Part shown: positions 111-63,162 of the stretch, one piece after another
Position numbering within the stretch: position 1 is the first letter of the stretch
Layout: every line of letters starts with the position of its first letter
Assembly (NCBI RefSeq): GCF_036365525.1
Contig: NW_027140807.1
Span: 1,426,001-1,490,000 of the forward strand
Reading direction: 5' to 3'
From: Heterodontus francisci
Taxonomy: Eukaryota
DNA: 64,000 bases
Position numbers and translations under genes: made by a program
The notes under the pieces: generated by a model
Databases searched by the model: none
The model's input: the letters and a program-made list of their open reading frames with translations, nothing else
Told to the model about the DNA's origin: nothing

Positions 111-149
111 GGTTTTTGTCAAGGCGGCCAATGACTCTGAACCGCTGTG
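111..149 (-). other. 23-RSS of V1
   Basis: CACAGCG (143-149), 23-nt spacer, ACAAAAACC (111-119). Confidence 0.95.
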
Positions 150-883
150 TCCCATCACCAGCTGCACAGAAATACACCGCCTCGTCCGTGGCGTTCACAC
201 TCTCGATCGTCAGAGTGGATTTCTTATTGTTCAGAGTCCTGGTAATAACAAACCCGCTCTTAAATCCATCTTCATACTGAGGTTCACCTGCTGTATAGGT
301 AAACCCGATTAACAGGAATCCTCCGCCGGGGGACTGACGATACCAGTACATGTAGTTGCGAACTGTTCCTTTCTGCAGACAGTTAATTTCCACGGGTCCT
401 GGTTGTTTAACAGCCAGTGACTGAGGCCATTGATGTATCACATCACCCCGGCAAACACCTAGAAAGAGAAATTAGAGTGAATGAACTAGTATCGATGGAG
501 TTACAATTGAGACGATGGACGTCGGTGTTGCACCAAATTAACGACGGAAATTCGGTCTGTGTCCTAATTTCCTGCAAGCACCTGGATCTTTACAACTGTA
601 AAATAGAATCGTGGAATCCACAAGTTTGCAAGTGGGTGCAAACATTAAAGAGTTAACATCATATTAATAACACTTGTCTTCCCGAACTAGGGGACAGATG
701 AATGAGTTCACTGTCTGATATGAAATAATCGATTACTGATTTCACAAGTCACCGCCGCTCAGTTTTATAGAGATTATTAATCATCCCTTTCAGTTAAACA
801 AATGTAGAAGATTGATTGGGACAGAATTTTAACCTACTCAGCGCCAGAAGGGAAATAGCAAAGACGATGAAACTGAAAGACAT
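150..883 (-). CDS. TRBV: TCR beta V gene segment V1 (leader exon 838-883, V exon 150-458)
   Basis: Leader MSFSFIVFAISLLAL with phase-1 GTAGGT donor; TTTCTAG acceptor; V exon VCRGDVIHQWPQ..C..WYRQ..DEAVYFCAAGDG, open frame, followed by a 23-RSS. Confidence 0.92.
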
Positions 884-5376: not shown

Positions 5377-5415
5377 GGTTTTTGCACTGGCACTAAGGCA
5401 GTCTGCAGCGCTGTG
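5377..5415 (-). other. 23-RSS of V2
   Basis: CACAGCG (5409-5415), 23 nt, GCAAAAACC (5377-5385). Confidence 0.93.
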
Positions 5416-6231
5416 CTCACTGGCTGCACAGTAATACACTGCCGCATCCGCAGCCTTAACCTTGAGGACCCTCAGGCTGCATCGTCTCTCCTTGGGCCTT
5501 AAAATCTTCACCTCCTCCTCAAATTTTCCTTCGTATGTGACTGGGATTCCATTAATAAAATGACCCATTAGGGTGAGCCCCTGCCCGGCATACTGCCGAT
5601 ACCACAGCATAACGCTCTTACTACTGTCATTCTGGTAACACTTTAATTCTGCTGGTTCACCTCTCTTCCCCACCACCAGAGTTGGCCACTGGTGTATCAC
5701 CTCTGCTAGAGTTTTGCCTTGAGAAATAAGGAGAATAGTTTAAAAAGTTTAGAACATATTGTGACATATGATAACCAACTATAACTATCCAAATAGATAA
5801 GTAGATAATACTAGATAACTATATAGGCAGACAATATATCGTTAAATGATATATTTGTAGATATATAGATAATACACAGATAGATATAGAGATTGTAAAA
5901 TAATGTAGCAAGTGATATGAGACAGACAAATTAATCCAGAATTAGGGAAAACTTATCGGTTAAAGATAGGTATAGTAGCGTCACGAATATATAAGTAATT
6001 TTTATTCAGTCATAAATTTCATTAAGTAAATATTATTGACAGTGAAAGTAAAGTAAGTAGTTTAAGAAATGACAGAAAATCGACTGCAATGATGTTTTAT
6101 CAATCTAGTTTGATAGAAGTTAGTAGTGAATGAAAACACAGCATGTATTTTAGCACAGGTATCTTTATGAACGATGAATACCTACATGGAAGAAGAGAAC
6201 AGACGATTAGGAAGAGTTTGACTAACTGCAT
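5416..6231 (-). CDS. TRBV: TCR beta V gene segment V2 (leader 6186-6231, V exon 5416-5717)
   Basis: MQLVKLFLIVCSLLP, phase-1 GTAGGT donor, TTTCTCAAG acceptor; KTLAEVIHQWP..C..WYRQ..DAAVYYCAASE; 23-RSS. Confidence 0.92.
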
Positions 6232-7350: not shown

Positions 7351-7389
7351 AGTTTTTGCTGAAATCTGGCACCTTTCTGAGTCACTGTG
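7351..7389 (-). other. 23-RSS of V3
   Basis: CACAGTG (7383-7389), 23 nt, GCAAAAACT (7351-7359). Confidence 0.92.
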
Positions 7390-8283
7390 CAGACTCCAGG
7401 CACAGTAATACACGGCTGATTGATTCACCCACAGGCTGGTGGACTCCAGGGAAAAATGGGTGTTGCTGGGTCTCCTGGCGGTGAAACCGCCAACCTCTCT
7501 GGAGGGAATGACTGTTCCGGCAGAGGTGGAATAGAAAAGGTTCTCGGGCTCACGGTCCGGATGCCACGGGTACCAGTGGATATCGGAGCCAGCATCTGCC
7601 TTTGTGTAAATACACTGGATACTGACTGGAGAGCCTGGGGAATAGGATATGGAAGCGGGAATCTGTTGCATCAACACGGCCCCCACATCTGTAAAACAGA
7701 GAGAGAGAGAGAGAGAGATAAACCCAGGGACAATGTTTAAATTGACATCGGCCACGAAGAGGGGAGAGGCACGATGGGCTGAATGACCTGCTGTGTGCCC
7801 TAAATGTCCCGTGTTTCTTCGTAAGAAGGGAGAGGTGGGAGACGGGGAGCTGCAAAGAGAGAGAGAGACATAGAGTGAAAAAGAGTGAGAGAAAAGGAGA
7901 GAAGCAGAGACAGAGAGAGAGAGAGAGAGGGAAGCACAGACAGAGAGAGAAAAACAGCAACATTCTAGACATCGGCAACAGACATGAAGGAGCTAAGAGG
8001 ACAGGGAGAGAGAGTAAGAGAGACAGAGAGACAGGGAGACTGGGAGGGACAGACATAGAGGAACATTTATTGTTAGACAGAGAGAAAGAGAGATAGAGAA
8101 AGGGATACAAAAAGAGAAAGAGAGCAGCTAAATTAACAATCACAGTGACGGTGCCTTGTAAGGGGGTAAACTCCCAATGGGGTCACACAGGGAAAGAGCA
8201 GTGAAGATGACTGACATCTCCCAGTCGAGGTCCACCTTACCCCTTAACACCAGCAACACAACGCAGAGGTGAGACACAGTCAT
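7390..8283 (-). CDS. TRBV: TCR beta V gene segment V3, CAWS family (leader 8241-8283, V exon 7390-7688)
   Basis: MTVSHLCVVLLVLR with GTAAGG donor; TTTTACAG acceptor; DVGAVLMQQIP..C..WYPW..NQSAVYYCAWSL; 23-RSS. Confidence 0.88.
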
Positions 8284-10132: not shown

Positions 10133-10625
10133 ATGTATCTGTTACTGAGTCTCATGGTCTTATTTCAAAGTAAGGGATCTTTCTCACCTCCACCCCACAC
10201 CCCCATTGTTTGTGTTAACAGCTCTCTTTCTTATTTTCTTTCTCTCTATCTTTCTCTCCTTCCTTCATTCTTCACATCCCAGATTGTCCCTGTTCACTGA
10301 CCTTCTTCTCTCCCGGTCTCTTCCTTCAGGCGCGATCTCAGCGAGGGTCCGCCAGACTCCCACCGCCGTCTCCAGATTTCCTGGGGAGGGAGTGGGACTG
10401 GAGTGCCGTGTGGAGGGCCAGAGTAGCGGTTACATGTTCTGGTACAGACAGGACCTGGGGAAGGAGCTGCGGCTGATGTTTTACTCCGCAGTTACACCAA
10501 GTGTGAACTCAGAAGGGACGGTGGAGGGTTTCACTGCCAAACGACCGACTGGTTCCCAGTTCAACCTGGAGTCCTCCAGCCTGCAGGAGAATCGCTCGGC
10601 GCTGTATTTCTGTGCCTGGAGTCTG
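10133..10625 (+). CDS. TRBV: TCR beta V gene segment V4, CAWS family, inverted orientation (leader 10133-10169, V exon 10330-10625)
   Basis: MYLLLSLMVLFQ with GTAAGG donor; TTCCTTCAG acceptor; AISARVRQTP..CRVEG..WYRQ..NRSALYFCAWSL; 23-RSS. Confidence 0.93.
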
Positions 10626-10664
10626 CACAGTGACTCAGAGAGATGGAGCAGTTCAACAAAAACA
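10626..10664 (+). other. 23-RSS of V4
   Basis: CACAGTG (10626-10632), 23 nt, ACAAAAACA (10656-10664). Confidence 0.95.
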
Positions 10665-35462: not shown

Positions 35463-35857
35463 TCTTGCTGTGACCAAATGGCATGCAGTGTTTCCAACAT
35501 TGCAACAGTGACGACCACTTTAACAATCAATTCACTGAGTGTCAAATGTTCCCGATTCATTTCAGTTCATTTTACTGAAGTTCTGAGTTTCGATTTGTCT
35601 CTCTGTCTCACTCCAACTTTCTTTCCCTCTGTCTCTCTAATTAAACCTTTAATAGTTAAAAACACACACAGCAGGGTGATTTGTTGTTGGTTTAAATGGT
35701 GAGACAGAAGTATTTCATAACTATTTTCAGTCAACACTACATATGAGATAGAGGGACAAAAACAGATATGGACAGAGAAAGAGAAGGAGAGACAGGGGAC
35801 GAATGGGATAGAAACAGAGAGAGATACAGAGACAGTGGAGATAGAGATAATGAGACA

Positions 35858-35919
<62 letters not shown>
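35858..35919. repeat. (CA)n microsatellite
   Basis: About 30 CA units. Confidence 0.95.
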
Positions 35920-35923
<4 letters not shown>

Positions 35924-36780
35924 GAAGTTGCTGTCACAATCCTTTTATCCTTTGGTTTATTAACTGTGATTTGTTTGTATTTGGGTGTTGCTGAGAGAGT
36001 GTCTGTGTAACCGAGGGCAATTCCTGGGCTCTTGCTGTGCTATTTTGTTTAACAATGTATTTTAATCAATTTTCTCTCTCTCCGTCTTGCCTTAGGAATT
36101 TTCATTCTGAAAACTGCATGGTGAAGATGAAAAGAGGGAAAGTTTGGGACGAGGAATCCTTGGACAGGAGCTTCCTCCTGAGGGGACGGACTGAGGCCTT
36201 GTCCACAGGCTGCACCCAAAGGGCCCACGTGAGTTGTGTCTGTTTATTAGGCCGTGGTTTAATTTCATGTCTGGGGTCCTGGGCTAACCAGTTCCTGTCG
36301 GATTGGGGCCCTGCTGTTTTAAATAGGTTGAAAGCCTGGGGTTAAAGGAGCAGCCTTGGTGCAAAACCTTGGTTGAAGTGGCACCATTGCTGGGATCTTG
36401 CTGTGCACAGCTTGCCGGCTGTTATCACACTGCTGCTTGTGGGATCTTGCTGTGTACCAATGGCCTGCAGCATTTCCAACATTGCAACAGTGACGAGCAC
36501 TTTAAAAATTAATTCATTGAGTGTCAAATACTTCTGTGAATCAGCAATGAAATGGCTGAAATGTGAAGGTTTGGAAAGGCTTGTTCTCATTCCCGAATAA
36601 TACTGGTGTCTTAGGCTGTGGGCTGAATTTGACAGTGAAATGAATCACCTGGCAGAGTTTCAGGGATGGGAATGTGGATTTCTCTCTCTATCCTTCTATG
36701 GGAGAGAGGATGGGGGTCACCAGTGTTTGTGTGTTTTTACAATGAGGCAGAAACAGATGTAGAGAGACACACAGAGAAAT

Positions 36781-36812
<32 letters not shown>

Positions 36813-38784
36813 AGAGACAGCAGGAAATGACAGTGTAAACACATCCACACTTCCCAGTCTCTGGCTCTGTGTCGGGGATGTGTTGGTAAGATGGGGAGTC
36901 ACTGGGAGATTGTTTTCTGTCAGTGAGTGAGAGAAAGAGCCCTGGGCTCTCGCTGTGTTTTATTTCTGTTCAAAAATGCTTTGCTTTATTTGAATCTAAT
37001 TTATTTCTTATTCCCAAGGAGAATCTTTTTGGAAGCTGCAGCTGTGATGATGCAAAGGTAGAATCTTTAGGCCACGTGGAATTCTCAGACAAGAGCTTTA
37101 ACCAGGGAGGGAAAATAATAATAAATATATATTTGTCATTGTCAAGTTCATTTCTAAATACAAAAAAGAAGACTGTGTGTGATTTCGGGGCTGATAGAAA
37201 AACAAAGTGCTGGAAATGCTCAGTATTTCCAGCACGGTTTTTATTTCAAATTGCCAGCATCTGCAGTATTTTGATTTTGTGTTTTCGGGGGTCTGTGGCT
37301 TTTCTCCCAATAGGGAGGGGGCTGGAGGGCGCTCCCGAAGGGAATAGTTTGGGAAGCGCTGCTCCAGAACAGTCAATGTAATCCCGTAGATTTCCCTCTC
37401 TCCATCTCTTGCTGCAACTTGTTCCCTGCACCTTCCTCCTTGTTCCTAGTTCTTTTTCTTCACATCTTTAAATCTCTATCTCTATCTCTCAACATCCTTT
37501 CTTTCTCTGCCCCTCGCTAGAGTCTCACAGGTTTCCATTGTCACTCTCTTTCTGCGATTCTCTGCATCTTTATCTGTCTCTCTCTCTCTTCTCCCACTCA
37601 CTTCCAAATCCCTGAATCTTTCCATCTCTGCTCCTCCTTTCCTGCAAGATTATCTCTGCATTTCCCCCATCCCGGGACACCCCTCTCTTATCTGGAAACG
37701 CGTCTTACTTTGTATCTCTGCCCCTCCACTTCTTTCTGTCTCTGCATCTCTCTTTGTCTGCGATCTTTCTCAATATCTACATCTCTGTGTATGTCTCCAT
37801 TTCTCTCTCTCTCTGCCCTTCTCGGTATTTCTGTCCCTCTGTTCTCAGTTTCTCTCACTGGTTTCGGACTCCAGCTCCATTTCCATTTATTTCTCTCTCT
37901 TTCTGTTCTGTCCTAATCCTGGAATCTGTTTTCTGTGTCACTCTCCCTCTGTCTGGGGGTGGATTTGAACTAGCTGCCTTGGTGTTGTACAGGGTGATTG
38001 TGAAGTGGGATCCTGCTTTCCATCTCTGCCCAGTTTTGCTCCCATTGATGTAAAAACAGGGGGGAGGAGCTGAACGGACAGCCGATTCACAACCACCCTC
38101 CTCCCCTCCATCCTGGTTTGCACCATTGGCACCAAGTCCGAGTCCAGCCCAGTGTTTCTTTGACTCTCTGTGTATCTGCTCCCTGACTGTCTCTGCCTGT
38201 CTCCTTGTGGCTCAATGGGGGAAGGGACAGATCAGCCATGATCTAACATGGGTGGGTCAGGCTCAAAAGGCTGAATGGCCTCCTCCCGTCCCTGTGCCAG
38301 TCAGTGTGTGAGTGTTTGTGTGTGTCTCCCTCTGTTTGATTCCCTGAAGCCGATGGGGAGAACAGGTGAAACACCTTTCTGCAGAGAGGGATGTGTCTGG
38401 AGCTGGGATCTTCCTGTGCATTAAAGGCTCAGAATGCCAGTTAGCCTCTGAAGGTCCTTGCTCTATGCCCGGCCCAGTGTTTGGCCTGACATGAGTTAAA
38501 GGTGCCGGTGCTCTGGGAGCCTGTTGATGGAATTCCACTGGCTTATCCAGATCAGGAATTAAAGTGAACGAAGGGTTGTCGGGAGACGGAGCCAAACCGA
38601 GGTAAGTGATGGAGGTGGGAATAACACGGGGGGGGGGGGGGTGCGGGGAGTGGGCTGTTCACGGGGGAGATGATACAGTGTGGGATTAAATAAAGGGGTT
38701 GCTTTTACACGACAGGGAGGGTATTCAGAAAGGGGAAGTGTTCACAGTGGAGGGTAGGGGGCAGAATTAGATTACGGTCAGTTA

Positions 38785-39450
38785 ATGGGGGGTATTTGGA
38801 TGGGAGTCTGCTCCTGGGGGTATTTAGATGGGGGTCTGTTCACAGAAGGGGGCAGTATTTAGATGGGGGTCTGTTGCGGACGGGTATAGAGATGGGAGTT
38901 TGTTCCCGGGAGGTATTTAGATGGGTGTTTGTTCCGGGGGCTATTCAGATGGGAAATTTTTCCCGGGGTGTATTCAGATAGGGGTTTGTTCCTGGTGGGG
39001 GTTAGATGGGAGTTTGTTCCTGGGGGGGTATTTAGATGGGGGTCTGGTCCTGAGGGGGGGTTTATTCAGATGGAAGCAAGTTACTGGGGGGTATTTAGAT
39101 GGGAGTATGTTCACGGGTGGGAGGTATTGAAATGGGAGCTTGTTCTCGGGGTGTATTTAGATGGGAGTCTGTTCCTGGGGGGTACTTAGATGGGAGTCTG
39201 TTCCCGGGGGGTATTTCGATGGGAGTCTGTCTGGGGGGGGGGGTGGTATTTTGATGGGGGTCTGTTCGCGGGGGGATATTTAGATGGGAGTCTGTTGCCG
39301 GGGGTATTTCGATGGGTTGTCTTGTAACATAGGGAAGGGGATAATTAGATGGGTTCTGTTGATAATGAGGGTATTAGATGGGGGTCAGTTAACAGGAGAT
39401 ATCAGATCGGGGTCTGCAGACGAGGATTATTTAGATTGGGGGGGGTCTGT
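38785..39450 (+). repeat. About 28-bp G-rich minisatellite (GGGGGTATTTAGATGGGAGTCTGTTCCT)
   Basis: About 20 diverged copies. Confidence 0.88.
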
Positions 39451-39569
39451 GCAAGGGGGAGATGTTTTCTGGGGGGGGAAATATTGCAGGGAAAAAGATT
39501 TGCTTGGTGCACAAAAATTGCAGGGGGTGGATAAATTGAGGGGTGGATAAATTGATGGGGTGGATAGGG

Positions 39570-40900
39570 TCAGAAAAAGACAGAAAAAGTCAGAAAGAGA
39601 GAGAGAAATGATAGAAAGAGAAATAGAGAAGACAGAAAGATACAAAGAAAGAGAGAGAAAAAGAAGGAGAGAAAAGATAGAAAGAGACAGAGAAAAGATA
39701 GAAGTAGACAAGAAAGAGAGAGACAAGGTGAGAGTAAAAGAAAGAGAGAAAAGATAGAAAGAGAAAGAGAGAAGATAGAAATAGAAAGAGAGAAGATAGA
39801 AAAGAAAGAAAGAGACAGAAACAGAAAAGAGAGAGAAACTCAGAGAAATAGAGAAAAGACAGAGAGACAGAAATAGAGAAAAGACAGAAAAAGTCAGAAA
39901 TAGAGAATTGAAGGAAAGTCAGAATAAGAAAAAGGACAGAAAGAGAGAGAAAAAGAGGAGGGGAAAAAGTGGAGGGAAAGAACAAAGACTCAAAGAAATT
40001 GCAGGCACCAAAGAGACAGACAGAAAGCCAATGAGAAAGACACAGAGAATCACAGAGAGATTGAAAGAGATGACAGAGAAAGCCATTGAGACAGAAAGAC
40101 GCACAATCACTCAGAGAGAGAGAGAAACACAAAGTGAGGGAGAGAGAGAGAGATGGAGGAACACAGAGAGGGAGAAATACAGAGAGCAGAGATTGAGGAA
40201 CAGAGAGAGAGAGAGAGTAACAGAGTCAGAAATACAAAGTGAGGGAGAGATTGAGAAATAGAGAGAATGAGAGAGAGATTTAGTGCGAGAGAGAGAGTGA
40301 TTGAGTGCGAGAGAGAGAGAGACATTGAGTGCGAGAGAGAGAGAGGGAGAGATTGAGTGCGAGAGAGAGAGAGACTTCAGTGCGAGAGAGAGAGAGATTC
40401 CAGTGCGAGAGAGAGAGAGATTTCAGTGCGAGAGAGAGATTTCAGTGCGAGACAGAGATTTCAGTGTGAGAGAGAGAGATTTCAGTGAGAGAGAATTCAG
40501 TGAGAGACAGAATTCAGTGAGAGACAGAATTCAGTGAGATTCAGAGAGAGAGATTCAGTGAGAGAGATATTGAGTGAGAGAGAGATTGAGTGAGAGAGAG
40601 ATTGAGAGAGCGAGAGATTGAGTGAGAGAGATTGAGTGAGAGAGAGATTGAGTGAGAGAGAGATTGAGTGAGAGGGAGATTCAGTGAGAGAGAGATTCAG
40701 TGAGAGAGAGATTGAGTGACAGAGAGAATTCAGTGAGAGAGAGAATTCAGTGAGAGAGAGAAATCAGTGAGAGGGAGATTGACTGAGGGAGACTGAGTGA
40801 GAGAGAGAATTCAGTGAGAGGGAGATTCAGTGAGAGGGAGATTCAGTGAGAGAGACTGAGTGAAAGAAACTGAGTCAGAAGGAGGGAGAAAGGGAGAGAG
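39570..40900 (+). repeat. GA-rich low complexity sequence plus (GAGAGAGATTCAGT)n minisatellite (40270-40865)
   Basis: Direct inspection. Confidence 0.88.
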
Positions 40901-42684
40901 AGACAATAAAGATGTGATACACACCATCCCACACCGTCTGCGTTCCATCGTTGGACTCTAACACCATCTCTCCATCAACTCATCCATGGGGAAAAGATCC
41001 TGGAGAGGGGCATTGGGGTGGGATTTGGAGATAAGCGTCAGGACTGGGACAGAGAGAGCAGGGGAATCAGACTGGACATTCACACACACACATACACTGT
41101 AATCAGCTTGCAATTCACCTGGGCACAGAGACACAGAGACTGAAACACAGAAACTCACCTTCAGAAACCAGCCGCATGGAAAGAAAGAATGGAGGCTGAT
41201 GTTGTCCTAATATATCCCAGAACCTGTCACTCAAAACAGCCAGTCCACCCAAAATACAGCTTATCCAACCAGCTACAAGCTTCCTCCATCTGGACACTCC
41301 CTCCCAGGTATGAGACAGTCCAAGGTGAGTTTCTGTGCAAACAGGGAATGGTAGAGAGAGGGATATTCCAGCCATATCCCAAATGGACCATTCCAGACAG
41401 AAACCTGTCTGTCTGTTTGTCTCTCTCTCCCTCCCCCAAAAACCTCATGAACAGAGCAGAAAAGCTGCTGTCATTTAAAACCTGGAGGGGCCGGTTTGGA
41501 TAATGGCCATTTAACACTGATTGTATTAAATGTCTTTCACTATTCACATCCAGTTAACAGAAAGTTCAGAAAATGACTCACTGCAATTACCTTGAAATTG
41601 TGACAAAGTGTTATTGCTGGAGAGGCCGGTTTGACTGCAGTATAAACAGGCAGTTTTTATTCGGTTTTTCAATTTCACTGTATGACAAAGAGTGAAACTG
41701 GAGCCAGGTTAATGCGGCAGCCAAGAGAACTTTTATAACCAGTGACATTTCACACAACAATTCGTACCCAAATTTACTGTTATATTTGTCAATGATTCTT
41801 TGTAGTTTATTTGCTGCTGCTGTATTTATGCATTAGCCTGTAATCAATCGAAAAAACCTCCTGAACATTCGCCAGTTTAATGTTACAAGGGTTCACAAAG
41901 CTGGGAAATGGACATTTATCTTAAATGATATTTAAGATCTTCCACTTTTCACCTCCAGTTTATATAAAGTTCAGCGATAAAGACCTCTACATTCTGACAA
42001 AGAGTTTTTACTGCTGCAATAAAGTGTCACTTGTTTCCATTTGCTTCCTGACTGTTTCTTTCCTCTGTTCTCCTGGGGGATTCAGAGGGATTTTTGTTCA
42101 TTGTTTGTCCAAATTCCTCTGCAGCTGCTGTCCTGGAGAAATTAATTATATTGTATTCAAAATCTTTCCCTCAGTTTGGAGATATGAGGAGAGACTGTTT
42201 TCACTAGCAGAGGGGAGAAACAAATAGGCAGGGAGTTGCTCTGGTCTGGAATTCACTGTCTGACAGGTTTCTGAAAGCAGATTCAATATTAACTTTCAAA
42301 ATACAATCGGATCAAAACTTCAATTTCTCTGAATTATAGTAGAGAAGATACCAGCAGAGAGAAGTGAGAGCGAGACAGAGATGCCATAACCATAGTGATG
42401 AAGAATTGAACACCACTTATATAGAGAGTTTTTATTTGAAAATGATTGAGTTTAATTTGATGCTGTTAATTTATTTATCCATTACCTTTAATCATTTAAA
42501 ATAATTTTCCAAACAGTAACGAGTTTAATGTTACAAGTGTTTACATCGTAGTAAAATAGCCACTTTACACAAACTGTATTGAAATTATTTTATTGAGCAT
42601 CTCAAGTTTACAGAAAGAAAATTCCGCAAACTTGTAAAAACTTTCAAACATTCAGCAACACAGAATCTCGATCAGCAACGGCTC

Positions 42685-43010
42685 AGCATCTCCATCTCCT
42701 GGTGCCCCTCTCTCACTGCAGTTACAGTCTCCCTCTCACCATCTCCATCTGCTGGTGTCCCTCTCTCACTGCAGTTGCTGCCCCCTCTCACCATCTCCAT
42801 CTGCTGGTGTCCCTGCCTCACTGCAGTTACTGCCCCTCTCCCCACCTCACAATCACTGCCATTTGCAGCTTTGTCCACTGGCGGCGGTTGTTGACAAGGC
42901 AACCACTAGGTGGCGCTGTACTAGCACATGCGCAAATGTACACTGTTCCAATTAAACGTCATGGTCTGCCACGTGCAGGCAGCTGCCAGGACTAAAGATG
43001 GCGCCGGTCA
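42685..43010. promoter_or_regulatory. CTCF/YY1/E-box motif cluster
   Basis: CCACTAGGTGGCGC 42903-42916; 52-bp repeats with minus-strand CCAGCAGATGGAGA; CATGCGCA 42927; CACGTG 42970; AAGATGGCG 42995. Confidence 0.6.
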
Positions 43011-43115
43011 AATAATCACAAAGGTGGGTGGAGGGTGGGAGGTGGAGCTGGGGGTCTGGGGGGGGGGGAGGGGGAATGGGATTTAGTTACAGTGTTTGAA
43101 ACCCTTCAGCTCTTT

Positions 43116-46100
43116 CTATGATTTCACTAATTTAACAATGAGATTGAGAGGGTATTTCACCCCCTTCTTCAGCTCCTGTCTGAATTTAGTCTGGGTCACA
43201 ATGTAAATACATGTGTTGGTGCAGGAACTGAGAATCTGCAGCATCTTTGATGTTTGTTCTGTGATAAAGAGAGGGTCAGTGAGGGAGGAATAATATAGAA
43301 TATCTGCAATTCGACAATAAATGATAAACACAACACGGGTCACCCATAACAGGATAAAACTGCCGGATATACTGAAGAGTAAAATAACTGATTTCCTGCG
43401 ATTCTCCATCTCTGCGTCCTTGTGATTCTCTGCATTGCTGTGGCGCCGGAATCCCCTGCGGACTTTACTGGAGAATAAAATCCGTCTGACAGTCAGAACA
43501 TTGAGCAGCAACATCAGAAAGACCGGGACACAAGGGGTTAAAATGTAATTAAACAATTCAAATGCCCCCAATATGGGGGAAGTAAAGAAACTCAGTTTAT
43601 AAACACAACCCATGGGAACATTATTAATAATGTAATATTGTTCCTGTGTAAAGTACCAGGGGAGAGACTCTAAACAGCCCAGCACACTCACTGTTCCAAC
43701 AACCACAGCCGCCGTTTTCTCGCTGCAATATTTTGTTTTCAGCTTCTCACAACAAATGGCCACAAATCGATCAAAGGTGAAAGTGACTGTGAGCCAGACA
43801 GAAACAACTGTGGATGCAGAAATCAAAACAGCAAGGAGAGAACAGACAGGAGTAATGTTCAGGAATGAATATGGAAAATAAATTGATCCAATCCATCTCA
43901 ATATGGGATTAGTGATAACGACCAGGAGATCAGACACTGCCATTCCCACCAGGTAGACAGTGATACATTTGGAGAGACCGCACTTTCCTCGGGACAGGAT
44001 CACAATCGCCACCAAGTTAACTGGAAGAGAGAGAGAAAAGGAAGCAGAGAAATTACTGATCAGACCTGGAGACAAAGCAGCAGTTTGACAGGATCTGGGC
44101 TGAAATTTCCAGCTTTGTTGCTGCATCGAGCAGTGAAAACTGATTCATTGAACTGGGCAGTGCTTTGTCGAAGTGAAATGTTTGAAAACACAATTATTAA
44201 TAATGAATTGGGAAATTGATATAGAAAGTGAATAAAGTCAGCACTGGATATACTGGAAGTACTGCGTGAGGATGCAGTGTCAGTGGGGAAATGAGAAGGG
44301 GTTTTACAGAGATGGAATCCAATGTGTTAATTGAGAATGTGTCTCCAGACTGTTGGTTAGGAAGGTTTGTGGAGAGCGGGATGGTTTGTTGCTCTGGGTT
44401 TAGGGACTGTTATCAAATGGGAAAAGGCTGAAAACTGCAGCGCTGAGTTTGAGTATCAGCCATGATCTAGAATGGTGGAGCAGGCCCGAAGGGCTGAATG
44501 GCCTCCTCCTACTCATATGTTACTGTATTCCTATCAGGTTGGACGAGGCAGCAGGAGGTGGAGCCAGTGAGGGTAATTGGGAGGGAGAGAAGGAAAAGGA
44601 CATGTTGGAGCTGGAGGGGAGACTGGAGCAAATGGTTTGGGAATGTGGATAAACTGAAGCAATGGATGATGAGGAGACTGAAGATTCAATACAGTGAGAG
44701 GAGAGGCTGAGATTCACAGAGAGAGACTGCAGCAGAGTGTTAGAGGAAATCTAATATATAGATCCCAGCAATACAACTCAATTCATACATTGAAACAATA
44801 ATCCCTGTGGTAATTGGTGTTGGAGCACAGTTTGTACAATATCGTCAATATATTTAGTTTGTAGAGGCAATTAAATATAAATTTAAATATATTTCTGATA
44901 TCAGCCTCGCTCTTTATTGAATTCAGTAGTCACAGAGATTTTAAAGTGCAGTATTTAAATAAAAAATTTCCATCAGTGTAAAACTGATTCTATTCAGATC
45001 ATGCAGTCACTAAGTAAGGAACAGGAACTTTCCACAAAACAAAATGAGGCCCTGACAGAAATCAACACAGAGGAACAAGTCCAACAGGAAAATGAACACA
45101 ATCTGGAAATGACCTGGAAGAGTGTGTAGAAGGGTGGGTTAGTAAATTTGCGGATGACACTAAGGTCGGTGGAGTTGTGGATAGTGCCGAAGGATGTTGT
45201 AGGGTACAGAGGGACATAGATAGGCTGCAGAGCTGGGCTGAGAGATGGCAAATGGAGTTTAATGCGGAAAAGTGCGAGGTGATTTACTTTGAAAGGAGTA
45301 ACAGGAATGCAGAGTACTGGGCTAATGGGAAGATTCTTGGTAGTGTAGATGAACAGAGAGATCTTGGTGTCCAGGTGCATAAATCCCTGAAGGTTGCTAC
45401 CCAGGTTAATAGGGCTGTTAAGAAGGCATATGCTGTGTTAGCTTTTATTAGTAGGGGGATCGAGTTTCGGAGGCACGAGGTCATGCTGCAGCTGTACAAA
45501 ACTCTGATGAGACCGCACCAGGAGTATTGCGTGCAGTTCTGGTCACCGCATTATAGGAAGGATGTGGAAGCTATGGAAAGGGTGCAGAGGAGATTTACTA
45601 GGATGTTGCCTGGTATGGAGGGAAGGTCTTACGAGGAAAGGCTGAGGGACTTGAGGTTGTTTTCGTTTGAGAGAAGGAGGAGGAGAGGTGACTTAATAGA
45701 GACATTTAAGATAATCAGAGGGTTGGATAGGGTGGATAGTGAGAGTCTTTTTCCTCGGATGGTGATGGCAAACACGAGGGGACATAGCTTCAAGTTGAGG
45801 GGTGATAGATATAGGACAGATGTCAGAGGTAGTTTCTTTACTCAGAGAGTAGTAGGGGCGTGGAGCGCCCTGCCTGCAACAGTAGTAGACTCGCCCACTT
45901 TAAGGGCATTTAAGTGGTCATTGGATAGACATATGGATGAAAATGGAATAGTGTAGGTCAGATGGTTTCACAGGTCTGCGCAACATCGAGGGCCGAAGGG
46001 CCTGTACTGCGCTGTAATGTTCTATGTTCTATGTTCTATCAGTGTAGAACTGATTCTATTCTGTTTATTCAGTCACTAAGTAAGGAATAGGAACTTTCTA

Positions 46101-47429
46101 CAAAACAAAATGAGGACCTGACAGAAATCATCACAGATGATCAAATCCAACAGGAAAATGAACACAATCTGACAGCAGACAACTTCAACTCACAGTTTCT
46201 CTCACTAATTGTTCTGGACATTCCAGCACCTTATGATAGCGAATTATTTACACTGCTGCTTCTTTCTCTTACTTCTGCTTATCTCTTTCCATCGGTTTCG
46301 TTCCCCCTGCTCCTTTTCTCCTTCCCTATCTCTCACACCCTGTAAATTGTTACTTAATGATGCTTTTCACATAGGATTTATTTCTAACATTCTGCGTCTG
46401 TGTTCTGTTCACCAGCCCCAGGTTCAATTATTCTATTCTCAGAGTAAGTTTGTTCAACGGTGAAACCTCTGTGAATAATTTAATGCATCTACAGAACATT
46501 CAAGTCTCCACCTGTTCACCTGCACTCTTCACATCATCTACAACATATGGAATAAACAGGATCGAAAGCTACTTCCAGACAAACCTCACAGTCATTGAAA
46601 TTACTTCTCCTGGAATTATAAAGTAATCTGTTAGAATGTGGGATTGTTTAATTAATAAAACACCAACATCAGCGCTGCAGCTGATAATCTACAGAAAGAC
46701 TCTTGATTCCAACTGATCGAGTGAAAACCAATAAAACATCATATCAATACTTTCTATTTTACAATGTAGTCCAGTGACAGTGAAGGGTCCACAGTGAAGC
46801 AGAGAAGGGGAAGTGAAAGTGTCAGCAGCAAACTCAGTTCAGTAGCCAGACTTCTGAAGCAGTGTCAGACACACACAGAGTGAAATAATGTTTGATAACA
46901 GTGATAATCAATAAATACATTGAAATCCCAGTTAAACTGAGCCATGTTATTGGGGAGGGAGGATATTGTTCTGTTCCCTTGTAACACTGAGACTGTGAGA
47001 TGTCTCATTATCAATCACTAAAAAGATATCATAAAAATATTCCAGGACCGGTTAGATCCACATCATGAAAATGTTAAAAACTCCGAATGGTCTGATTATT
47101 AATCGTAACAGAGAACATGATTTGAATGCAGTCAATACACAGAATAATCCAGTAAGAATGCCACGGTTACTGAAACCAATACAATAAAAGACATGACACA
47201 TCTCCTGCAGCACTGAAAGAATAGACAATGAGGAGATTCCATCAGTAAATTGCTGGAAAAGAATAGGTGGCTGTGTAACACACACAGTGAGAAATAATAC
47301 CGAGTACAGCAGCACAGTTAACATCGATTTACACCATTAACAGCTGAGATTCTGCTTACCAGGAACTCCAATTGCTGCAAGTACTGGATAGTAAATGAAT
47401 ATGAACTGATACATTACTGGATATCCCAT
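43116..47429 (-). CDS. Class A orphan GPCR, GPR139/GPR142-like family; exon 1 47360-47429, exon 2 43116-44020; 324 aa
   Basis: Exon 1 MGYPVMYQFIFIYYPVLAAIGVP plus G|GTAAGC; acceptor CTCTTCCAG|TTAAC; spliced frame open for 975 nt; seven hydrophobic segments, AVSDLL (TM2), TFDRFVAIC, SSCTNTCIY, TAG stop. Confidence 0.9.
45106..46037 (+). mobile_element. 5'-truncated CR1 in the GPCR intron
   Basis: FADDTKVGG through the ORF end (259-aa ORF 45177-45956); (TTCTATG)n tail. Confidence 0.93.
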
Positions 47430-48087
47430 TCCTGTGAGAAGCAGAGGCTTCTATTAGCCTGGAATCCACAGCTCCACCAGGCACTCTGAGCTGATCCAAT
47501 CCATTGGGTCCTAATTTATACAGGGGATAAGTCTCCACTGACACGGTGATACTCCTAATCATTGCTATTAGTTATACTCACCTCAACAAACACATTACAT
47601 CAGCAGCTTTGATGCTGATGTAAATAATGTGGTGGATAAAACACAATCATTTCAATGTCAATGACATTTTCTTTGTAAGGCCTCTCTCGGGAATGAACCT
47701 GAAAACCGTCCTCATACTGCACGGATGCTACAATTATGAGAGGCGTCATTTATATTTGCCATATTATTGTATTGACCTTATTCACTCCTGGCATTTCTGT
47801 TGTAAATGTAACTGATCTGTCTGCAGTGGACACTGAATCCAGGGACAAAAGCAATTACGTTTCACTCTGTTCCTGTCTTTTCCCCAGTTAAAATGTGAAC
47901 TTTGTGGATCTGATTCAGGACAGTGTTCAGGGTTACAGCCCAGAAACTACTGTGGGTGATATTGGGGGTCAGACACTGTACACAGCCATTAGGGAGGCAG
48001 TCGCATATTGATAATATCACTGCTCAAGTAATCCAGAGGCCCAACCTGATGTGCTGGGGACAGGGTTCAAAACTCACCTTGGCAGCT

Positions 48088-48568
48088 GTATAAAATAGAG
48101 GGAGCTCCCTCTCTCTGCATAAAGTGGAGAGAGCTCCCTCTGTATGTATACAGTGGAGGAAGCTCCCTCTCTTTGTTTCAAGTGCAGGGAGCTCCCTCTC
48201 TATGTATAAAGTGGAGGGAGCTCATTCTCTATGTCTTAAATGGAGGGAGCTTCCTCTCTATGTATAAAGAGGAGGGAACTCCCTCTCTATGTATATAGTT
48301 TAGGGAGCACCCTCTCTATGTATAAATTGGAGCGAGCTCCCCCTCTATGAATAAAATAGTGGGAGCTCCCCCTCTACGTATAAAGTGGAGGCAGCTCCCT
48401 CTCTATGTATAAAGTGGAGGCAGCTCCCTCTCTACGTATAAACTGGAGTGAGCACCCTCTGTACGTATGCAGTAGAGCGAGCTCCCTCTCTATGTATACA
48501 GTGCAGTGAGCTCCCTCTCTACGTATAAAGTGGAGGGAGCTATCGCTCTACGTATAAAGTGGAGGGCG
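48088..48568. repeat. 29-bp minisatellite with palindromic core GAGGGAGCTCCCTC
   Basis: About 16 copies of GGAGGGAGCTCCCTCTCTATGTATAAAGT, starting directly after a tRNA-SINE head (47990-48088). Confidence 0.9.
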
Positions 48569-49344
48569 AGTCAGGACAAAGGAGAGAGGGAAATGTAAAC
48601 AAATGGAGTATTGGAGAGAAAAACGAAGTGAAAGACTGAGGGACAGTAGAGTTAGTAAAATTAGACCTTGACAGAACCCCAGAAACAATGTCAATTGTCT
48701 GACCCGTCTGGTATTGGGGATTTAGTGTGAGTGCTTTAGGGCTGAGTTTTTGCTCAAACTGAAGTGACATTCCCAACAAGCGCAAGAGTTACAGATTCAA
48801 AATTAACAACGGAATGGCTCGAAGCATTGCTGTCCATGGAGAGAGGGAAACAGAGATGGAGGGAGAGAGACACAGACAGAATGGGACAGAGACAGAGGGA
48901 GAGAGAGACAGAGAGAGTGTGACAGGGCGGGATTAAATGAGAAACTTTAGATCTAATAATGTTTGAAAAAAGAGAAAATTAAAAACTAAAACTGGCTGTG
49001 TGCAAAAACTAAATTTGAAAGGAAACATTTGGGGTTTAGTGTGAGTGTTTTGGAGGGAACTGTTGGATCAGTGTTTCATATTTTCAAACTGCAGGGACAG
49101 TTATTATTGTGGACAATATATTATCAAAAATGGACAAACTTTAGAAGTAGGGGAAAAGGGAGACAGGGTGTGAGGGGACCTTGACAGAACCTCAGTAAAA
49201 ATCCCCATTATCTGCCCAGTCCTGTATTGGGGGTTTAGTGTGAGAGTTTAGGGAGCGTGTGTTGATCAGTGTTTGATATTTTCAAACTGCAGTGACGTTC
49301 CCAGCAAGGCCAAGAATTGCAGGTTCAAAATTAACCAATAAATG

Positions 49345-49686
49345 TTTAGTTTAGAGATACAGCTCTGAAACAGGCCCTTCGGCCCACCGAGTCTGTGCCG
49401 ACCATCAACCACCATTTATATACTAATCCTACACTAATTCCATATTCCTACCACATCCCCACCTGTCCCTATATTTCCCGACCACCTACGTATACTAGGG
49501 ACAATTTATAATGGCCAATTTACCTATCAACCTGCAAGTCTTTGGCATGTCGGGGGAAACCGGAGCACCCAGAGGAAACCCACGCAGACACAGGGAAAAC
49601 TTGCAAACTCCACACAGGCAGAATTGAACCCGGGTCGCTGGAGATGTGAGGCTGCGGTGCTAACCACTGCGCCACTGTGCCACCCA
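49345..49686 (-). mobile_element. HE1-like V-SINE (tRNA head, V-domain, CR1-derived tail)
   Basis: A box TGGCGCAGTGG, B box GGTTCAATTC, V-domain GTGTGGAGTTTGCAAGTT..GCGTGGGTTTCCTC, tail GGGCCGAAGGGCCTGTTTC and (CTAAA)n. Confidence 0.88.
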
Positions 49687-50057
49687 CATATTTTCAAACT
49701 GCAGGGACGTCCCCAGCAAGGGCAAGAATTGCAGGTTCAAAATTAACCAATAAATGGACGAAACCATTTCTGTCCAAGGAGAGAGAGAGGGAGAGATGGT
49801 GTGAGAGAGGCACAGGCACAGTCATGGACTGCGGCGGGGAAAGAGGGAGAAGGAGATCGAGGGAGAGAGAGAAAGAGATGGAGAGAGACAGACATGAGAG
49901 GCAGAGACAAATAGAGGATGAGACAAGATGTAACAGTCAGTAACAATCCTCATTATCTGCCCAGTCCTGTGTTGGGAGTTTAGTGTGAATGTTTTACGCG
50001 TGAGTGTTGGATCAGTGTTTGATATTTTCACACTGCAGTGACCTTCCCAACAAGGCA

Positions 50058-50660
50058 GGTATAGAATAGAAGAGCTTGGAGGTTATGCTGAAACTGCATA
50101 ACCCATTGGTTAGACCACAACTCGAGTACTGTGTGCAGTTCTGGTCACATCGTTACAGAAAGGATGCAATTGCACTGGAGAGGGTACAGAGGAGATTTAC
50201 GAGGATGTTGCCAGAACTGGAAAATGCAGCTATGAGGGAAGATTGGATCGGCTGTGGCTGTTCTCCTTGGCACAGAGAAGGCTGACGGGAGATCTGACTG
50301 AAATGTGAAGGGCTTGGATAGAGTGGAAGTGAAGGGTCGATTCACCTTAGTAGAGAGCTCAGCGATGAAGGGGCATAGACTTAAAGTGATTGGTAGAAAG
50401 ATTAGAAGGGAGATGAGGAAAATATTTTTCACTCAGAGGGTGGTGAGGGTCTGGAACAGATGGCCTGAAAGGGGAGTTGAGGCGGAAAACCTCAAGTCAT
50501 TCAAAAGGAGTCTGGATATGCACCTCAAGTGCCTGAATCTACAGGGCTACGGAACAAAGGGTGGCAGGTGGGATTAGAGTAGGAAGATCGTTATTTGTCT
50601 GGCACAGATACGATGAGACAAGTGGCCTCTTTCTGTGCCTTAAAATTTCTGTGATTCTAA
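50058..50660 (+). mobile_element. CR1 3' fragment
   Basis: LVRPQLEYCVQFWS..FFTQRVVRVWN. Confidence 0.88.
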
Positions 50661-56225: not shown

Positions 56226-56240
56226 CCGCCCTCTGCTGTC
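56226..56240 (-). promoter_or_regulatory. CTCF-like motif downstream of the V5 RSS (paralogous site at about 58777-58791)
   Basis: Minus strand GACAGCAGAGGGCGG; paralogue GACAGCAGAGGGGGA. Confidence 0.45.
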
Positions 56241-57472: not shown

Positions 57473-57511
57473 GGTTTTTGTTGAACTGCTCCATCTCTCT
57501 GAGTCACTGTG
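57473..57511 (-). other. 23-RSS of V5
   Basis: CACAGTG (57505-57511), 23 nt, ACAAAAACC (57473-57481): consensus heptamer and nonamer. Confidence 0.96.
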
Positions 57512-57960
57512 AGGACTCCAGGCACAGAAATACACGGCCGAGTGATTCTCCCGCAGGCTGGAGGACTCAAGGTTGAACTGGGTGTCAGTTGGTCTCTCGG
57601 CGGTGAAACCGCCCACCGTCCCCTCTGGATCTACATAGTTAGCAGTACTGGAGTAAAACATCAACAGCGGCTCCTTCCCCGGGTATTGTCTGTACCAGTA
57701 CATTCTAGCAGTACTGGTGCCCTCCAATGTGCACCTCAGTTCCACTGCCTCTCCACGCAATCTGGAGACAGCGGCGGGAGTCTGGTGGATCGTCTGTGAG
57801 TTCACATCTGGGAGAGGGAGAGAAGAGCAGATCAGTAAACAGGAAACTTCTGGGAATGAAAGGGAGACAGGGAGAAGAGAGGAAAGTTATTAACGATAGT
57901 TTTTGCATTTCACACTCACTTACAATGAAACAGGATTATCAGACCCAGTAACAGATTCAT
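57512..57960 (-). CDS. TRBV: TCR beta V gene segment V5, TRBV30-like CAWS family (leader 57924-57960, V exon 57512-57807)
   Basis: MNLLLGLIILFH with GTAAGT donor; CTCCCAG acceptor; VNSQTIHQTP..CTLEGTS..WYRQ..NHSAVYFCAWSP. Confidence 0.93.
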
Positions 57961-59051: not shown

Positions 59052-59160
59052 TTTTTTTGTTGAACTGCTCCATCTCTCTGAGTCACTGTGATCTCTCCAG
59101 GCACAGAAATACACGGCCGAGTGATTCTCCCGCAGGCTGGAGGTCTCCAGTTTGAAGTTG
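59052..59160 (-). pseudogene. 5'-truncated V5-family relic retaining a 23-RSS
   Basis: NFKLETSSLRENHSAVYFCAWRD (59091-59160); CACAGTG 59084-59090, 23 nt, ACAAAAAAA; CR1 sequence follows on its 5' side. Confidence 0.88.
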
Positions 59161-59169
59161 TATTTATTT

Positions 59170-60135
59170 AGTCTTTGGGAGTAGATAGAGAGAAACTATA
59201 ACCGCTGGTTTGGGAATCTAGGACTAAGAGGCAAAGACTAAAAATTAGAGCCAGACCTTTCAGGAGTGAAATTAGGAAACACTTTTACACACAATGGGTG
59301 GAGAGGTTTGAACTCTCTTCTGCTCACGGAAATTGATGCTGAATCAATTGTTAATTTGAAATCGGAGATGAATAGGTTTTTGTGATCCAAAATATATTCA
59401 GGGATATGGGGCAAAGGCGGGAATATGGAGTTAGATCACAGATCAGCCATGATCTCATTGAATGGTGGTACAGATTTGAGGGGCTGAATGGCCTCTTCCT
59501 TTCCCTGTCTTTGTCTCAGCAGTTTCTGCTGACAGTGAATTCTGTATTTTGGGTAAAGAATTCTCGTGAATTCCCCACCAGATTTCAGTTTATCGCAGCT
59601 TTTATTCTCTGTTTTATTCCTATCCACTTCGTCCCCTAGTCTTTGTACAATCAGCTAATGGGAACAGTTTTTCTTTGTCTACTTTATCTAAACCTCTCTT
59701 CATTTTGTACACTTCTATCAAATCTCCCCTCAATCTCCTTTGCTCCAAGGAGAACAACCCCAGCTTCACCAACCTAACCATGCAGCTAAACTCTCTCATC
59801 CCTGGAACCATTCCAGTAAATCTCCTCTGCACCCTCTCAAGGACCCTACATCCTTCCTCAAGTGTGGTGACCAGAACCGGGCTCAGTACACAAGTTGGGG
59901 CCCAACCAGAACCTCATATATGTTGAGCATACCCTCCCTGCTTTTGTACTTTATACCTCTATTCATGAATCCCAAGATCCCATAAGCTTTGCGAACCTCT
60001 CTCTCAATATGTCCTGCCAACTTCAAAGATCTATGCACATTAAGCCCCAGGTCCCTCTGTCCTTGAACACTCTTCAGGCCTGTGTCATTAAGTCAGTATT
60101 TCCTCTCTGTCTCCCTTCTGCCAAAATGCATCACC
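59170..60135. mobile_element. Two CR1 fragments (plus 59170-59500; minus 59620-60135)
   Basis: QRRFTGMVPG..LEQRRLRGDLIEVYK; tail motifs. Confidence 0.8.
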
Positions 60136-62190: not shown

Positions 62191-62389
62191 AGAGCTGTTC
62201 GATGAACCATTATACAGGTGTGGGCAGAGACAGTGTGTGTTGTCTGTCTGGAGGTTGTGGGGAGTTAGAACATGGGCGTTCTGCCACTCGAACGGGCACT
62301 GAACAGATGCAGATCCGCATCCGATCAGCCAGGGCTGCTCTTCACCGAATGCTGGGTTAAATGCACCCGTTTGAAGGGAGACGTGTGAG

Positions 62390-62428
62390 GGTTTTTGTCA
62401 AGGCGGCCAATGACTCTGAACCGCTGTG
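62390..62428 (-). other. 23-RSS of V6
   Basis: CACAGCG (62422-62428), 23 nt, ACAAAAACC (62390-62398). Confidence 0.95.
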
Positions 62429-63162
62429 TCCCATCACCAGCTGCACAGAAATACACCGCCTCGTCCGTGGCGTTCACACTCTCCATCGTCAGAGTGGATT
62501 TCTTATTGTCCAGAGTCCTGCTAATAACAAACCCGCTCTTAAAACCCTCTTCATACTGAGGTTCATTGCTTAGAAAGTTAAACCCGATTAACAGGAATCC
62601 TCTGCCGGGGGACTGACGATACCAGTACATGTAGTCGCGAATCTTTCCTTTCTGCAGACAGTTCATTTCCACTGATCCTGGTTGTTTGACAGCCAGTGAC
62701 TGAGGCCATTGATGTATCACATCACCCCGGCAAACACCTAGAAAGAGAAATTAGAGGGAATGAACTAGTATCGATGGAGTTACAATTGCGACGATGGACG
62801 TTGGTGTTGCACCAAATTAACGACGGAAATTCGGTCTGTGTCCTAATTTCCGACAAGCACCTGGATCTTTACAAATGTAAAATAGAATTGTGGAATCCAC
62901 AAGTTTGCAAGTGGGTGCAAACATTAAAGAGTTAACATCATATTAATAACACTTGTCTTCCCAAACTAGGGGACAGATTAATGAGTTCACTGTCTTGTAT
63001 GAAATAATCGATTACTGATTTCACAAGTCACCACCGCTGAGTTTTATTAAGATCATTAATCATCCCTTTCAGTTGATCAAATGTAGAAGAGTGATTGGGA
63101 CAGAATTTTAACCTACTCAGCCCCAGAAGGGAAATAACAAAGACGATGAAACTGAAAGGCAT
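62429..63162 (-). CDS. TRBV: TCR beta V gene segment V6, paralogue of V1 (leader 63117-63162, V exon 62429-62737)
   Basis: MPFSFIVFVISLLGL, then VCRGDVIHQWPQ..DEAVYFCAAGDG; open frame. Confidence 0.92.

Follow-up and report, generated by a model that had tools for sequence, protein, structure and literature searches.

A two-exon receptor gene lies among TRBV segments

The analysed window, a 64-kb stretch of the genome of Heterodontus francisci, contains seven V-type 23-spacer RSSs, six of which adjoin full V-set exons. The exons are V1 (118..447, minus strand; RSS at 149), V2 (5377..5718, minus; RSS at 5415), V3 (7351..7689, minus; RSS at 7389), the inverted V4 (10338..10664, plus; RSS at 10626), V5 (57473..57799, minus; RSS at 57511) and a duplicate of V1 (62390..62726, minus; RSS at 62428), which is 93% identical to V1 over 1.55 kb. 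The seventh RSS, at 59090, adjoins only a 3' V fragment (59052..59180, minus). A receptor type was named by 8 of the 114 V-search matches, and in all eight it was TRBV; V3 matches an unnamed rearranged V-J-C record at 74% identity. No H. francisci V protein on a named contig occurred among the V-search matches, and a search of the 64-kb window for J-like motifs was negative. Within the 47-kb V-free interval, which is full of LINEs and of satellites, among them an 8.8-kb AG-rich array (22976-31790), lies a GPCR gene on the strand common to six of the seven V/RSS units. TRBV-type matches, 23-spacer RSSs and strand agreement thus bear out the first-pass annotation, which had placed the gene amid TRBV segments, mostly on the same strand.

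This GPCR gene is intact and of class A (rhodopsin), lies on the minus strand and has two exons, 324 codons plus a stop and no internal stop. Exon 1 (47360..47429, 70 nt) encodes the start methionine, a short N-terminus that matches those of homologues and the first part of TM1, and ends at a GT donor; exon 2 (43116..44020, 905 nt) follows an AG acceptor, is joined to exon 1 in phase 1 and encodes the rest of TM1 through TM7, helix 8 and the stop. The receptor matches Pfam 7tm_1 (E 3.8e-19, 69.6 bits versus a curated cut-off of 30.5), and the AlphaFold model of its exon-2 part (pLDDT 85) comprises six full helices as well as the end of TM1 and helix 8. All 50 matches listed by a fold search with this model were class A receptors. 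Gene model, domain match and predicted fold therefore agree on the intact two-exon 7TM gene originally proposed.

D2.50, DR3.50, the C3.25/ECL2 cysteine pair, P5.50, W6.48, N7.49 and Y7.53 are all present in the window receptor; P7.50 is missing, as it is from human GPR139. The DRF and NTCIY motifs, picked out earlier together with the short N-terminus, each occur in 106 of 121 family sequences and are thus family traits. The TM1 asparagine stands at residue 25 in 55 of the 121, the same position as in the window model, which supports the modelled start codon as well as the shortness of the N-terminus. Five residues of the window receptor differ from near-invariant sites, for example leucine for the tryptophan found at 5.35 in 31/31 paralogues, and these departures may reflect relaxed constraint.

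The single intron (44021..47359, minus) carries a CR1-type LINE 3' fragment (45106..46033, plus), which is presumably CR1 by its tail repeat and RT hit and is bracketed by 138-bp direct repeats of 91% identity (44968-45105 and 46034-46171). This fragment is absent from other copies, as indicated by skipping joints in run X1, whereas the non-CR1 parts of the intron are common to other family copies, as indicated by contig depth and by paralogue models P0004 and P0072, which contain pieces derived from the intron. Upstream, a candidate promoter TATAAA (47515..47520, minus) stands 86-91 nt before the ATG and is followed outward by a 29-bp satellite array of 16.6 copies (48087..48566). Downstream, a 52-bp minisatellite (42682..42848) lies near the left edge of a high-copy unit, where contig depth steps, and the closest candidate polyadenylation signal is AATAAA at 42589..42594 (minus). 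The flanking satellites showed no match to each other, and no Rfam family matched anywhere in the 64-kb window.

GPR139 is the nearest characterised relative

By sequence, GPR139 was the best solved-structure match (E 8e-7 with the single sequence; 9.7e-30 by profile versus 1.4e-22 for the next family), although it ranked 38th of the 50 matches listed in the fold search, where the E range was narrow. The window receptor is only about 20% identical to GPR139, compared with 70% between the zebrafish orthologue and human GPR139 (PMC7318219). Furthermore, at F3x33, H5x43, W6x48 and N7x38, which PMC5430874 describes as required for GPR139 agonist action, the window receptor has S, N, W and K, keeping one of four. 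Orthology was therefore rejected: by sequence comparison GPR139 is the nearest characterised receptor, so that the earlier name "GPR139-like" holds as a nearest-match label but not as a statement of orthology.

GPR139 and GPR142, class A orphans responding to L-Trp/L-Phe, resemble the shark gene in being two-exon genes (PMC7318219). They also share a TM7 motif without proline, and W6.48 and R6.51 align; human GPR139, however, aligns an aspartate at 3.25, where the window receptor keeps the cysteine. Both are single-copy with a conserved pocket, whereas the shark family is multi-copy with a variable one. Two further groups share the short N-terminus with the window receptor, at about 30-33% identity. 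One is a single-copy "probable GPR139" (the P0236/P0281 group) of sharks, coelacanth, teleosts, amphibians and reptiles, two models of which are named TMEM183A isoforms; the other is the salamander P0230 group, sister of the elasmobranch expansion in a quick tree (SH-aLRT 93). Unlike the expansion, both apparently have one gene per species and a conserved pocket, and sharks retain their own P0236/P0281-group copy separate from it. The ESM Atlas yielded nothing beyond this automatic name and clusters of FMRFamide/Srw-like type, which is no more than a lead.

The receptor belongs to a large, dispersed elasmobranch family

Among the best 120 protein matches, 119 were named elasmobranch proteins, 57-90% identical to the window receptor, which shares its start, splice site, DRF and NTCIY with this elasmobranch "probable GPR139" family. 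H. francisci accounted for 47 of the 120, over 31 distinguishable contigs (16 of them at least 10 Mb), and the 22 rows that reached at least 80% identity fell on 15 distinguishable contigs, both counts resting on a proxy for contig identity. In the quick tree, which contains no true GPR139, the window gene nests among elasmobranch paralogues in a starred clade of 21 rows, and its five neighbours lie on five different horn-shark scaffolds. One 90%-identity cluster had three members on three contigs. Of 22 paralogues with a same-contig companion, only four had their nearest relative on their own contig, a figure biased toward dispersal because clustering at 90% hides near-identical tandem copies.

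Read-derived contigs gave a similar picture. In DNA run X1, summed contig depth, which is not copy number and derives from contigs shorter than 400 nt, too short to connect the GPCR with V genes, was 25,500-77,500 over exon 2, 36,400-45,700 over the non-CR1 intron and 32,400-49,900 over exon 1 and upstream. By comparison, the leftmost bin had 2,700 and the single contigs listed had 20-107. In DNA run X8, summed depths were 82-457 and 108-176 versus 2.8. Exons and intron being alike in both runs, the whole gene including its intron is high-copy, and the family likely numbers hundreds of copies over many chromosomes. Best matches, depth and tree accordingly uphold the earlier statement of a very large expansion of the family in cartilaginous fish.

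An extra domain was present in 10 of 30 long family models (sodium channel, integrin, uromodulin-like, two Ig-type, hemopexin, TRIM, LRR, trypsin and RT); several of these are immune-type genes, and none is a TCR or Ig V segment. In skate model P0215 a family member is fused to a trypsin. As trypsinogens are amniote TRB residents, this fusion could hint at a TRB link of old date.

The predicted ligand pocket is hypervariable among paralogues

Amino-acid entropy, not dN/dS, was compared between 37 positions that we assume to form the pocket and 49 other outer positions. In a first set of 32 sequences, mean entropy was 1.34 bits at the pocket versus 0.72 elsewhere (p 0.005); it was 1.29 versus 0.80 in Heptranchias (30 sequences, p 0.046) and 1.20 versus 0.66 in rays (15 sequences, p 0.005). 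In a single-copy control of 25 sequences, which compares orthologues and not paralogues, the order was reversed (0.74 versus 1.15). The five nearest paralogues differ from the window receptor at 11-16 of 37 pocket sites versus 21-36 of 263 others. On these alignments, the predicted pocket is hypervariable among paralogues in three elasmobranch sets and conserved in the single-copy relative. With a pocket of its own in each copy, redundancy between copies cannot be assumed.

The ligand site is predicted to lie within the helix bundle, because there is no N-terminal domain, and each copy would bind a different small molecule or short peptide there and signal via a G protein. Odorant, trace-amine, MRGPR and formyl-peptide receptors share with the shark family lineage-specific bursts, a compact coding region, a short N-terminus and pocket-centred variation. 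Odorant-type repertoires differ in belonging to another class A branch, and the close shark copies are scattered over scaffolds together with intron and flanks. By this analogy, we lean toward the family being a working germline sensor repertoire of the odorant- or trace-amine-receptor kind. Its site of action might be the external chemical senses, at a little under an even chance; immune or microbial sensing seems a rather unlikely site, and somewhere else an unlikely one.

Sharks and rays are thought to have very few odorant receptors, and if expressed in sensory epithelia, the family would be a candidate for a missing part of shark chemoreception; if expressed in leukocytes, it would be a germline immune-sensing set. 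A published top-50 list for brain and olfactory epithelium contains no GPCR gene, which counts against the nose, and the main text of PMC10620051 has no GPR passage. Among the papers listed by literature searches on GPR139 and on receptor names with sharks, which covered mainly open-access work, no account of the family was found. In runs X5 (RNA by our guess) and X9 (of unknown kind), coverage extends over the intron and flanks in addition to the exons. The 15 of 83 joints listed did not include the junction of exon 1 with exon 2, and this coverage is neutral as to expression.

The window gene is likely a passenger copy

The proposal that the gene was co-duplicated with V cassettes found no support in the window. 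The seven V segments are accompanied by a single GPCR, neither another copy nor a fragment was found in the 64 kb, including beside the V1/62.4-kb pair, and only two matches, of 56-59 nt, connect the GPCR unit with the rest of the window. Flanking DNA is thus unshared, and the closest relatives lie on five different scaffolds.

We consider it likely that the window gene arrived as a passenger, as one copy of a duplication unit that disperses through the genome and belongs to a receptor repertoire not described before. A DNA-level unit of at least 5 kb, with promoter, both exons, intron and flanking satellites, would have been copied into the TRBV array as it likely was to many chromosomes. The mechanism would be either ectopic recombination or segmental duplication, with the satellites assisting. 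The likely hundreds of copies on many chromosomes, with differing predicted pockets, argue for a passenger and against T-cell machinery. A retrocopy was rejected, since the intron is present and common to other copies. Cut-and-paste transposon cargo was likewise rejected: no transposase occurred in the 103 frames scanned, and no inverted repeat bracketing the GPCR unit was found among the pairs listed for 40900-50100 (25 of 26). Interspersed segmental duplicons, among them the NPIP/NBPF cores of primates and KRAB zinc-finger units flanked by satellites, are comparable in copying an intron-containing unit with flanking satellites to distant sites. They differ in that the shark unit likely has a far higher copy number; no target-site duplication was identified for it. 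The family would thus be a case of complete, intron-bearing genes moving from chromosome to chromosome on a large scale.

A GPCR among V genes is less surprising than first claimed. According to PMC2275272, GPCR genes of the olfactory-receptor type are scattered among the TRAV genes of human, mouse and opossum, and trypsinogens, also named earlier as TRB residents, lie between TRBV and TRBC. The TRAV1 olfactory receptors and TRB trypsinogens are thus, like the shark gene, non-TCR genes between V segments (PMC2275272). Their deletion by V(D)J joining follows from position; they are conserved across mammals, whereas the shark copy looks lineage-recent. The TRB position, for which there are mammalian precedents, is probably incidental, and the receptor family matters more than that position.

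As to excision by V joining, the geometry stands: six of seven RSSs point left, so that joins of right-hand V genes would excise the GPCR gene, provided that D-J-C lies to the left. In some T-cell clones, V-to-DJ joins across the passenger would then remove it or turn it round, in all likelihood with no consequence.

Alternative readings and the CTCF-like site

It is unlikely that the gene is instead a functional TRB resident, opened in thymocytes together with the V genes and clonally lost by V-to-DJ joining, so that clones would differ in receptor dose. Its intact frame with a TATA promoter candidate, its strand, its pocket differing from those of the nearest paralogues and the skate relative adjoining a trypsin agree with this, but the single copy per seven V segments with unshared flanks, the nearest relatives on five scaffolds and the lineage-specific tree bursts, which suggest a young copy, do not. 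The CTCF-like motifs at 42903(+) and 56239(-), being convergent, would also tend to insulate the GPCR, and passengers are known in mammalian TRA and TRB (PMC2275272).

Very unlikely, too, is that the inserted DNA acts as an insulator rather than a receptor, its CTCF-like site splitting the V array and shifting V-beta usage between left and right. An ectopic CTCF insulator changed V-beta choice in mouse, according to PMC3439925. The only exact CTCF-core match in the 64 kb (42903..42916, plus) falls within the GPCR unit, 200 nt past the stop codon, and points opposite to two motifs near V genes; core matches with at most one mismatch number 3 versus 0.66 expected (1/100 shuffles reached 3). The site is, however, predicted from what we take to be the CTCF core consensus, as is a YY1-like motif at 42995-43003 from its presumed motif.

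We regard as highly improbable that the interval is a mis-join, or that it parts two V clusters which do not form one recombining locus. Between the GPCR and the right-hand V genes there are three N gaps (53-57 kb), the 47-kb V-free gap consists of LINEs and satellites, and a high-copy unit invites mis-joins. Yet V3, V4 and the GPCR lie within one N-gap-free stretch (7262-53076), the same V families flank the GPCR (93% and 76-78% identity), and its own intronic insertion makes the window copy distinguishable.

Least probable of all would be a repertoire of hundreds of pocket-diversified shark and ray receptors, dispersed in the form of a unit insulated by its own CTCF site, the TRB copy being T-cell-expressed, kept or lost by V choice and its insulator biasing V-beta, so that sensor content would be tied to clonotype. 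The window copy offers a natural test of how an inserted candidate CTCF site affects V usage.

An intact receptor gene of an elasmobranch family

The receptor gene inside the TRBV array is encoded on the minus strand by exon 1 (47360-47429) and exon 2 (43116-44020), which have GT and AG ends and splice in phase 1 to give 324 codons and a stop. The exon 2 part matched Pfam 7tm_1 at 69.6 bits and was predicted to fold as a class A bundle (pLDDT 85), and all 50 listed fold matches were class A receptors. The gene has a TATAAA 86-91 nt upstream and, approximately 520 nt beyond the stop, an AATAAA. Thus, splice ends, frame, Pfam and fold confirmed the first-pass annotation of an intact two-exon, 324-codon 7TM gene carrying DRF and NTCIY, and the gene is real. 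Of 121 family sequences, 106 carried DRF, 106 carried NTCIY and 55 had an identical start codon-to-TM1 asparagine distance, indicating that these are family traits and not peculiarities of this copy.

The top protein matches were from horn shark (up to 90%). The search returned 2,448 relatives; among the best 120, 119 were named elasmobranch proteins, almost all labelled probable GPR139. This name merely records the nearest hit. The best solved-structure match was human GPR139 (E 8e-7 with the single sequence, 9.7e-30 with the profile), but its identity to the window gene is about 20%; the zebrafish GPR139 orthologue is 70% identical to human (PMC7318219). Mutagenesis showed four GPR139 residues to be important (PMC5430874), only one of which is retained. 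A separate, apparently single-copy relative was found in sharks, coelacanth, teleosts, amphibians and reptiles; this group (models P0236/P0281) lies outside the expansion, and its 120 listed rows include no mammal. A salamander group (P0230), also outside the expansion, was its sister in a quick 80-row tree without true GPR139. No published description of the family turned up in searches of largely open-access literature, nor was there anything on it in passages of PMC10620051 and PMC11754216.

Pocket diversity among the copies

The signalling motifs of the window gene are intact, and since it has no N-terminal domain, the helix bundle is its predicted ligand-binding site. We compared entropy at 37 positions, which we take from class A numbering to line the pocket, with that at 49 other outer positions, bearing in mind that alignment columns are not independent and that entropy is not dN/dS. 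Mean entropy was 1.34 versus 0.72 bits in horn shark (the window gene plus 31 of the 47 horn-shark rows; p 0.005), 1.29 versus 0.80 in Heptranchias (30 rows; p 0.046), and 1.20 versus 0.66 in rays (15 rows; p 0.005), whereas the pattern was reversed in the single-copy relatives (25 of the 120 rows; 0.74 versus 1.15). Between the window gene and its five nearest paralogues, 11-16 of the 37 pocket sites differed versus 21-36 of the 263 others. Judged from sequence, this is the pattern of a repertoire whose copies would bind different ligands. Five window residues depart from near-invariant sites, which could reflect relaxed constraint on this copy.

Dispersal as whole genes

H. francisci contributed 47 of the best 120 rows, on 31 distinct contigs (16 of at least 10 Mb) told apart by size as a proxy for identity. 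The group around the window gene was star-like, with its five nearest members on five scaffolds, horn-shark and Heptranchias copies grouped largely by species in the quick tree, and one 90% cluster was spread over three contigs. The nearest relative was on the same contig for 4 of the 22 paralogues having a same-contig companion, a count that sequence clustering pushes low. Thirty long models were selected from the matches, and 10 of them carried a foreign, neighbour-derived domain (sodium channel, integrin alpha-X-like, uromodulin-like, two Ig-type proteins, hemopexin, TRIM, LRR, trypsin and RT). No antigen-receptor V segment was among these domains in the 30 models, a weak test because gene models seldom fuse V segments. 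Little skate model P0215 (828-kb scaffold), joining a family fragment to trypsin, may represent a copy close to a cluster of trypsinogens, and perhaps to TRB; it points towards a TRB link because trypsinogens mark TRB in amniotes.

Contigs of four sequencing runs (from 24 listed) were aligned onto 42500-47900 at 90% likeness. In DNA run X1, summed depth was 25,500-77,500 over exon 2, 36,400-45,700 over the non-CR1 intron at 46120-47024 (one bin 11,700), and 32,400-49,900 over exon 1 and upstream DNA, whereas the leftmost bin had 2,700 and the single contigs listed had 20-107. In run X8, depths of 82-457 and 108-176 compared with 2.8, with low bins (8-23) at 47025-47567. Intron and flanks are thus as deep as the exons, and X1 indicates hundreds of copies, as an order of magnitude only, summed depth not being copy number. 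X1 contigs skipped the intronic CR1-type LINE fragment, indicating that other copies do not have it. This fragment lies between 138-bp direct repeats (91%), far longer than the usual target-site duplication; fragment and repeats together span 44968-46171.

Parts of paralogue models resembled the intron of the window gene and DNA on both sides of the gene, and two of the models matched 36-38.5 kb, indicating a longer unit common to some copies. Exon-like plus-strand pieces with AG/GT ends occur at 36097-36228, 37020-37058 and 38349-38602; in horn-shark model P0034, two upstream exons match the first two pieces, and the tail of model P0018 matches 38422-38514 and 42790-42879 in order. These matches suggest another spliced unit, antisense to the receptor here, that travels with some copies. 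Satellites flank the gene (29-bp upstream, 52-bp downstream), and a second 29-bp satellite, unrelated to the first, occupies 38786-39316. Neither bracketing inverted repeats around the unit nor, in a Pfam scan of window frames, a transposase was found. The unit would have spread by DNA-level duplication through ectopic recombination. The weight of the finding lies in the family, a large receptor set with diversified pockets that spreads as whole genes, rather than in the TRB position of this copy. For catshark, PMC11979771 gives small odorant-receptor counts and a top-50 brain plus olfactory list with no GPCR.

Relation to the TRB locus

Seven 23-spacer RSSs follow V sequence (149, 5415, 7389, 10626 [inverted], 57511, 59090 and 62428), six of them preceded by full V-set exons. 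TRBV was named in all 8 of the 114 V-profile matches that specified a receptor type, so the reported TRBV context stands. V3 shared 74% identity with a rearranged, unnamed V-J-C record. The 3′ fragment before RSS 59090 (59052-59180), with an intact 23-RSS and 93% identical to the end of V5, could serve as a decoy for recombination. A search of the window gave no J-like motif, and a Pfam scan of 103 further frames across 10.7-57.4 kb gave LINE parts and weak matches only.

Co-duplication of the receptor with V cassettes, also proposed, found no support within the window. One V family comprises four segments, and V1 is 93% identical to the V at 62.4 kb over 1.55 kb, yet the window has one receptor gene and no remnant of another, and the receptor unit gave only two short matches to the rest of the window. 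The V duplicate includes upstream DNA (1-1553 and 62280-63817, 93% identical, 62.3 kb apart). The TRB link is most likely incidental.

That the gene is a functional resident of TRB appears improbable. Six of the seven RSSs point leftward, and the suggestion that right-hand V joins would delete the receptor if D-J-C lies on the left holds as geometry: joins of the three right-hand segments would excise it, and with D-J-C on the right, excision would come from V4 joins and inversion from V1-V3 joins. Mammalian loci provide a precedent: the TRAV genes of human, mouse and opossum have olfactory-receptor genes scattered among them, and the interval from TRBV to TRBC contains trypsinogens (PMC2275272).

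Still less probable is that the inserted DNA acts through an insulator effect. A candidate CTCF-like site at 42903-42916 is the only exact match in the window to what we take to be the CTCF core; with at most one mismatch, 3 matches were observed versus 0.66 expected, and a count of 3 was attained in 1 of 100 shuffles. The site faces another motif at 56226-56239, and the pair would enclose the receptor. In mouse, an ectopic CTCF insulator altered V-beta choice (PMC3439925). Least probable is a mis-join or split locus, for although three N gaps separate the receptor from V5, one gap-free stretch holds V3, V4 and the receptor together.

Regarding the array itself, a single inverted V of the CAWS-ending type lies at 10338-10664; amniote inverted TRBV genes form one clade located 3′ of TRBC (PMC11754216). 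An AG-rich array spans 8.8 kb (22976-31790), and 53408-55544 holds a 42-bp satellite whose short tail is inverted. A perfect 16-bp inverted repeat (41146-41161 and 41322-41337) has arms resembling splice donors on opposite strands.
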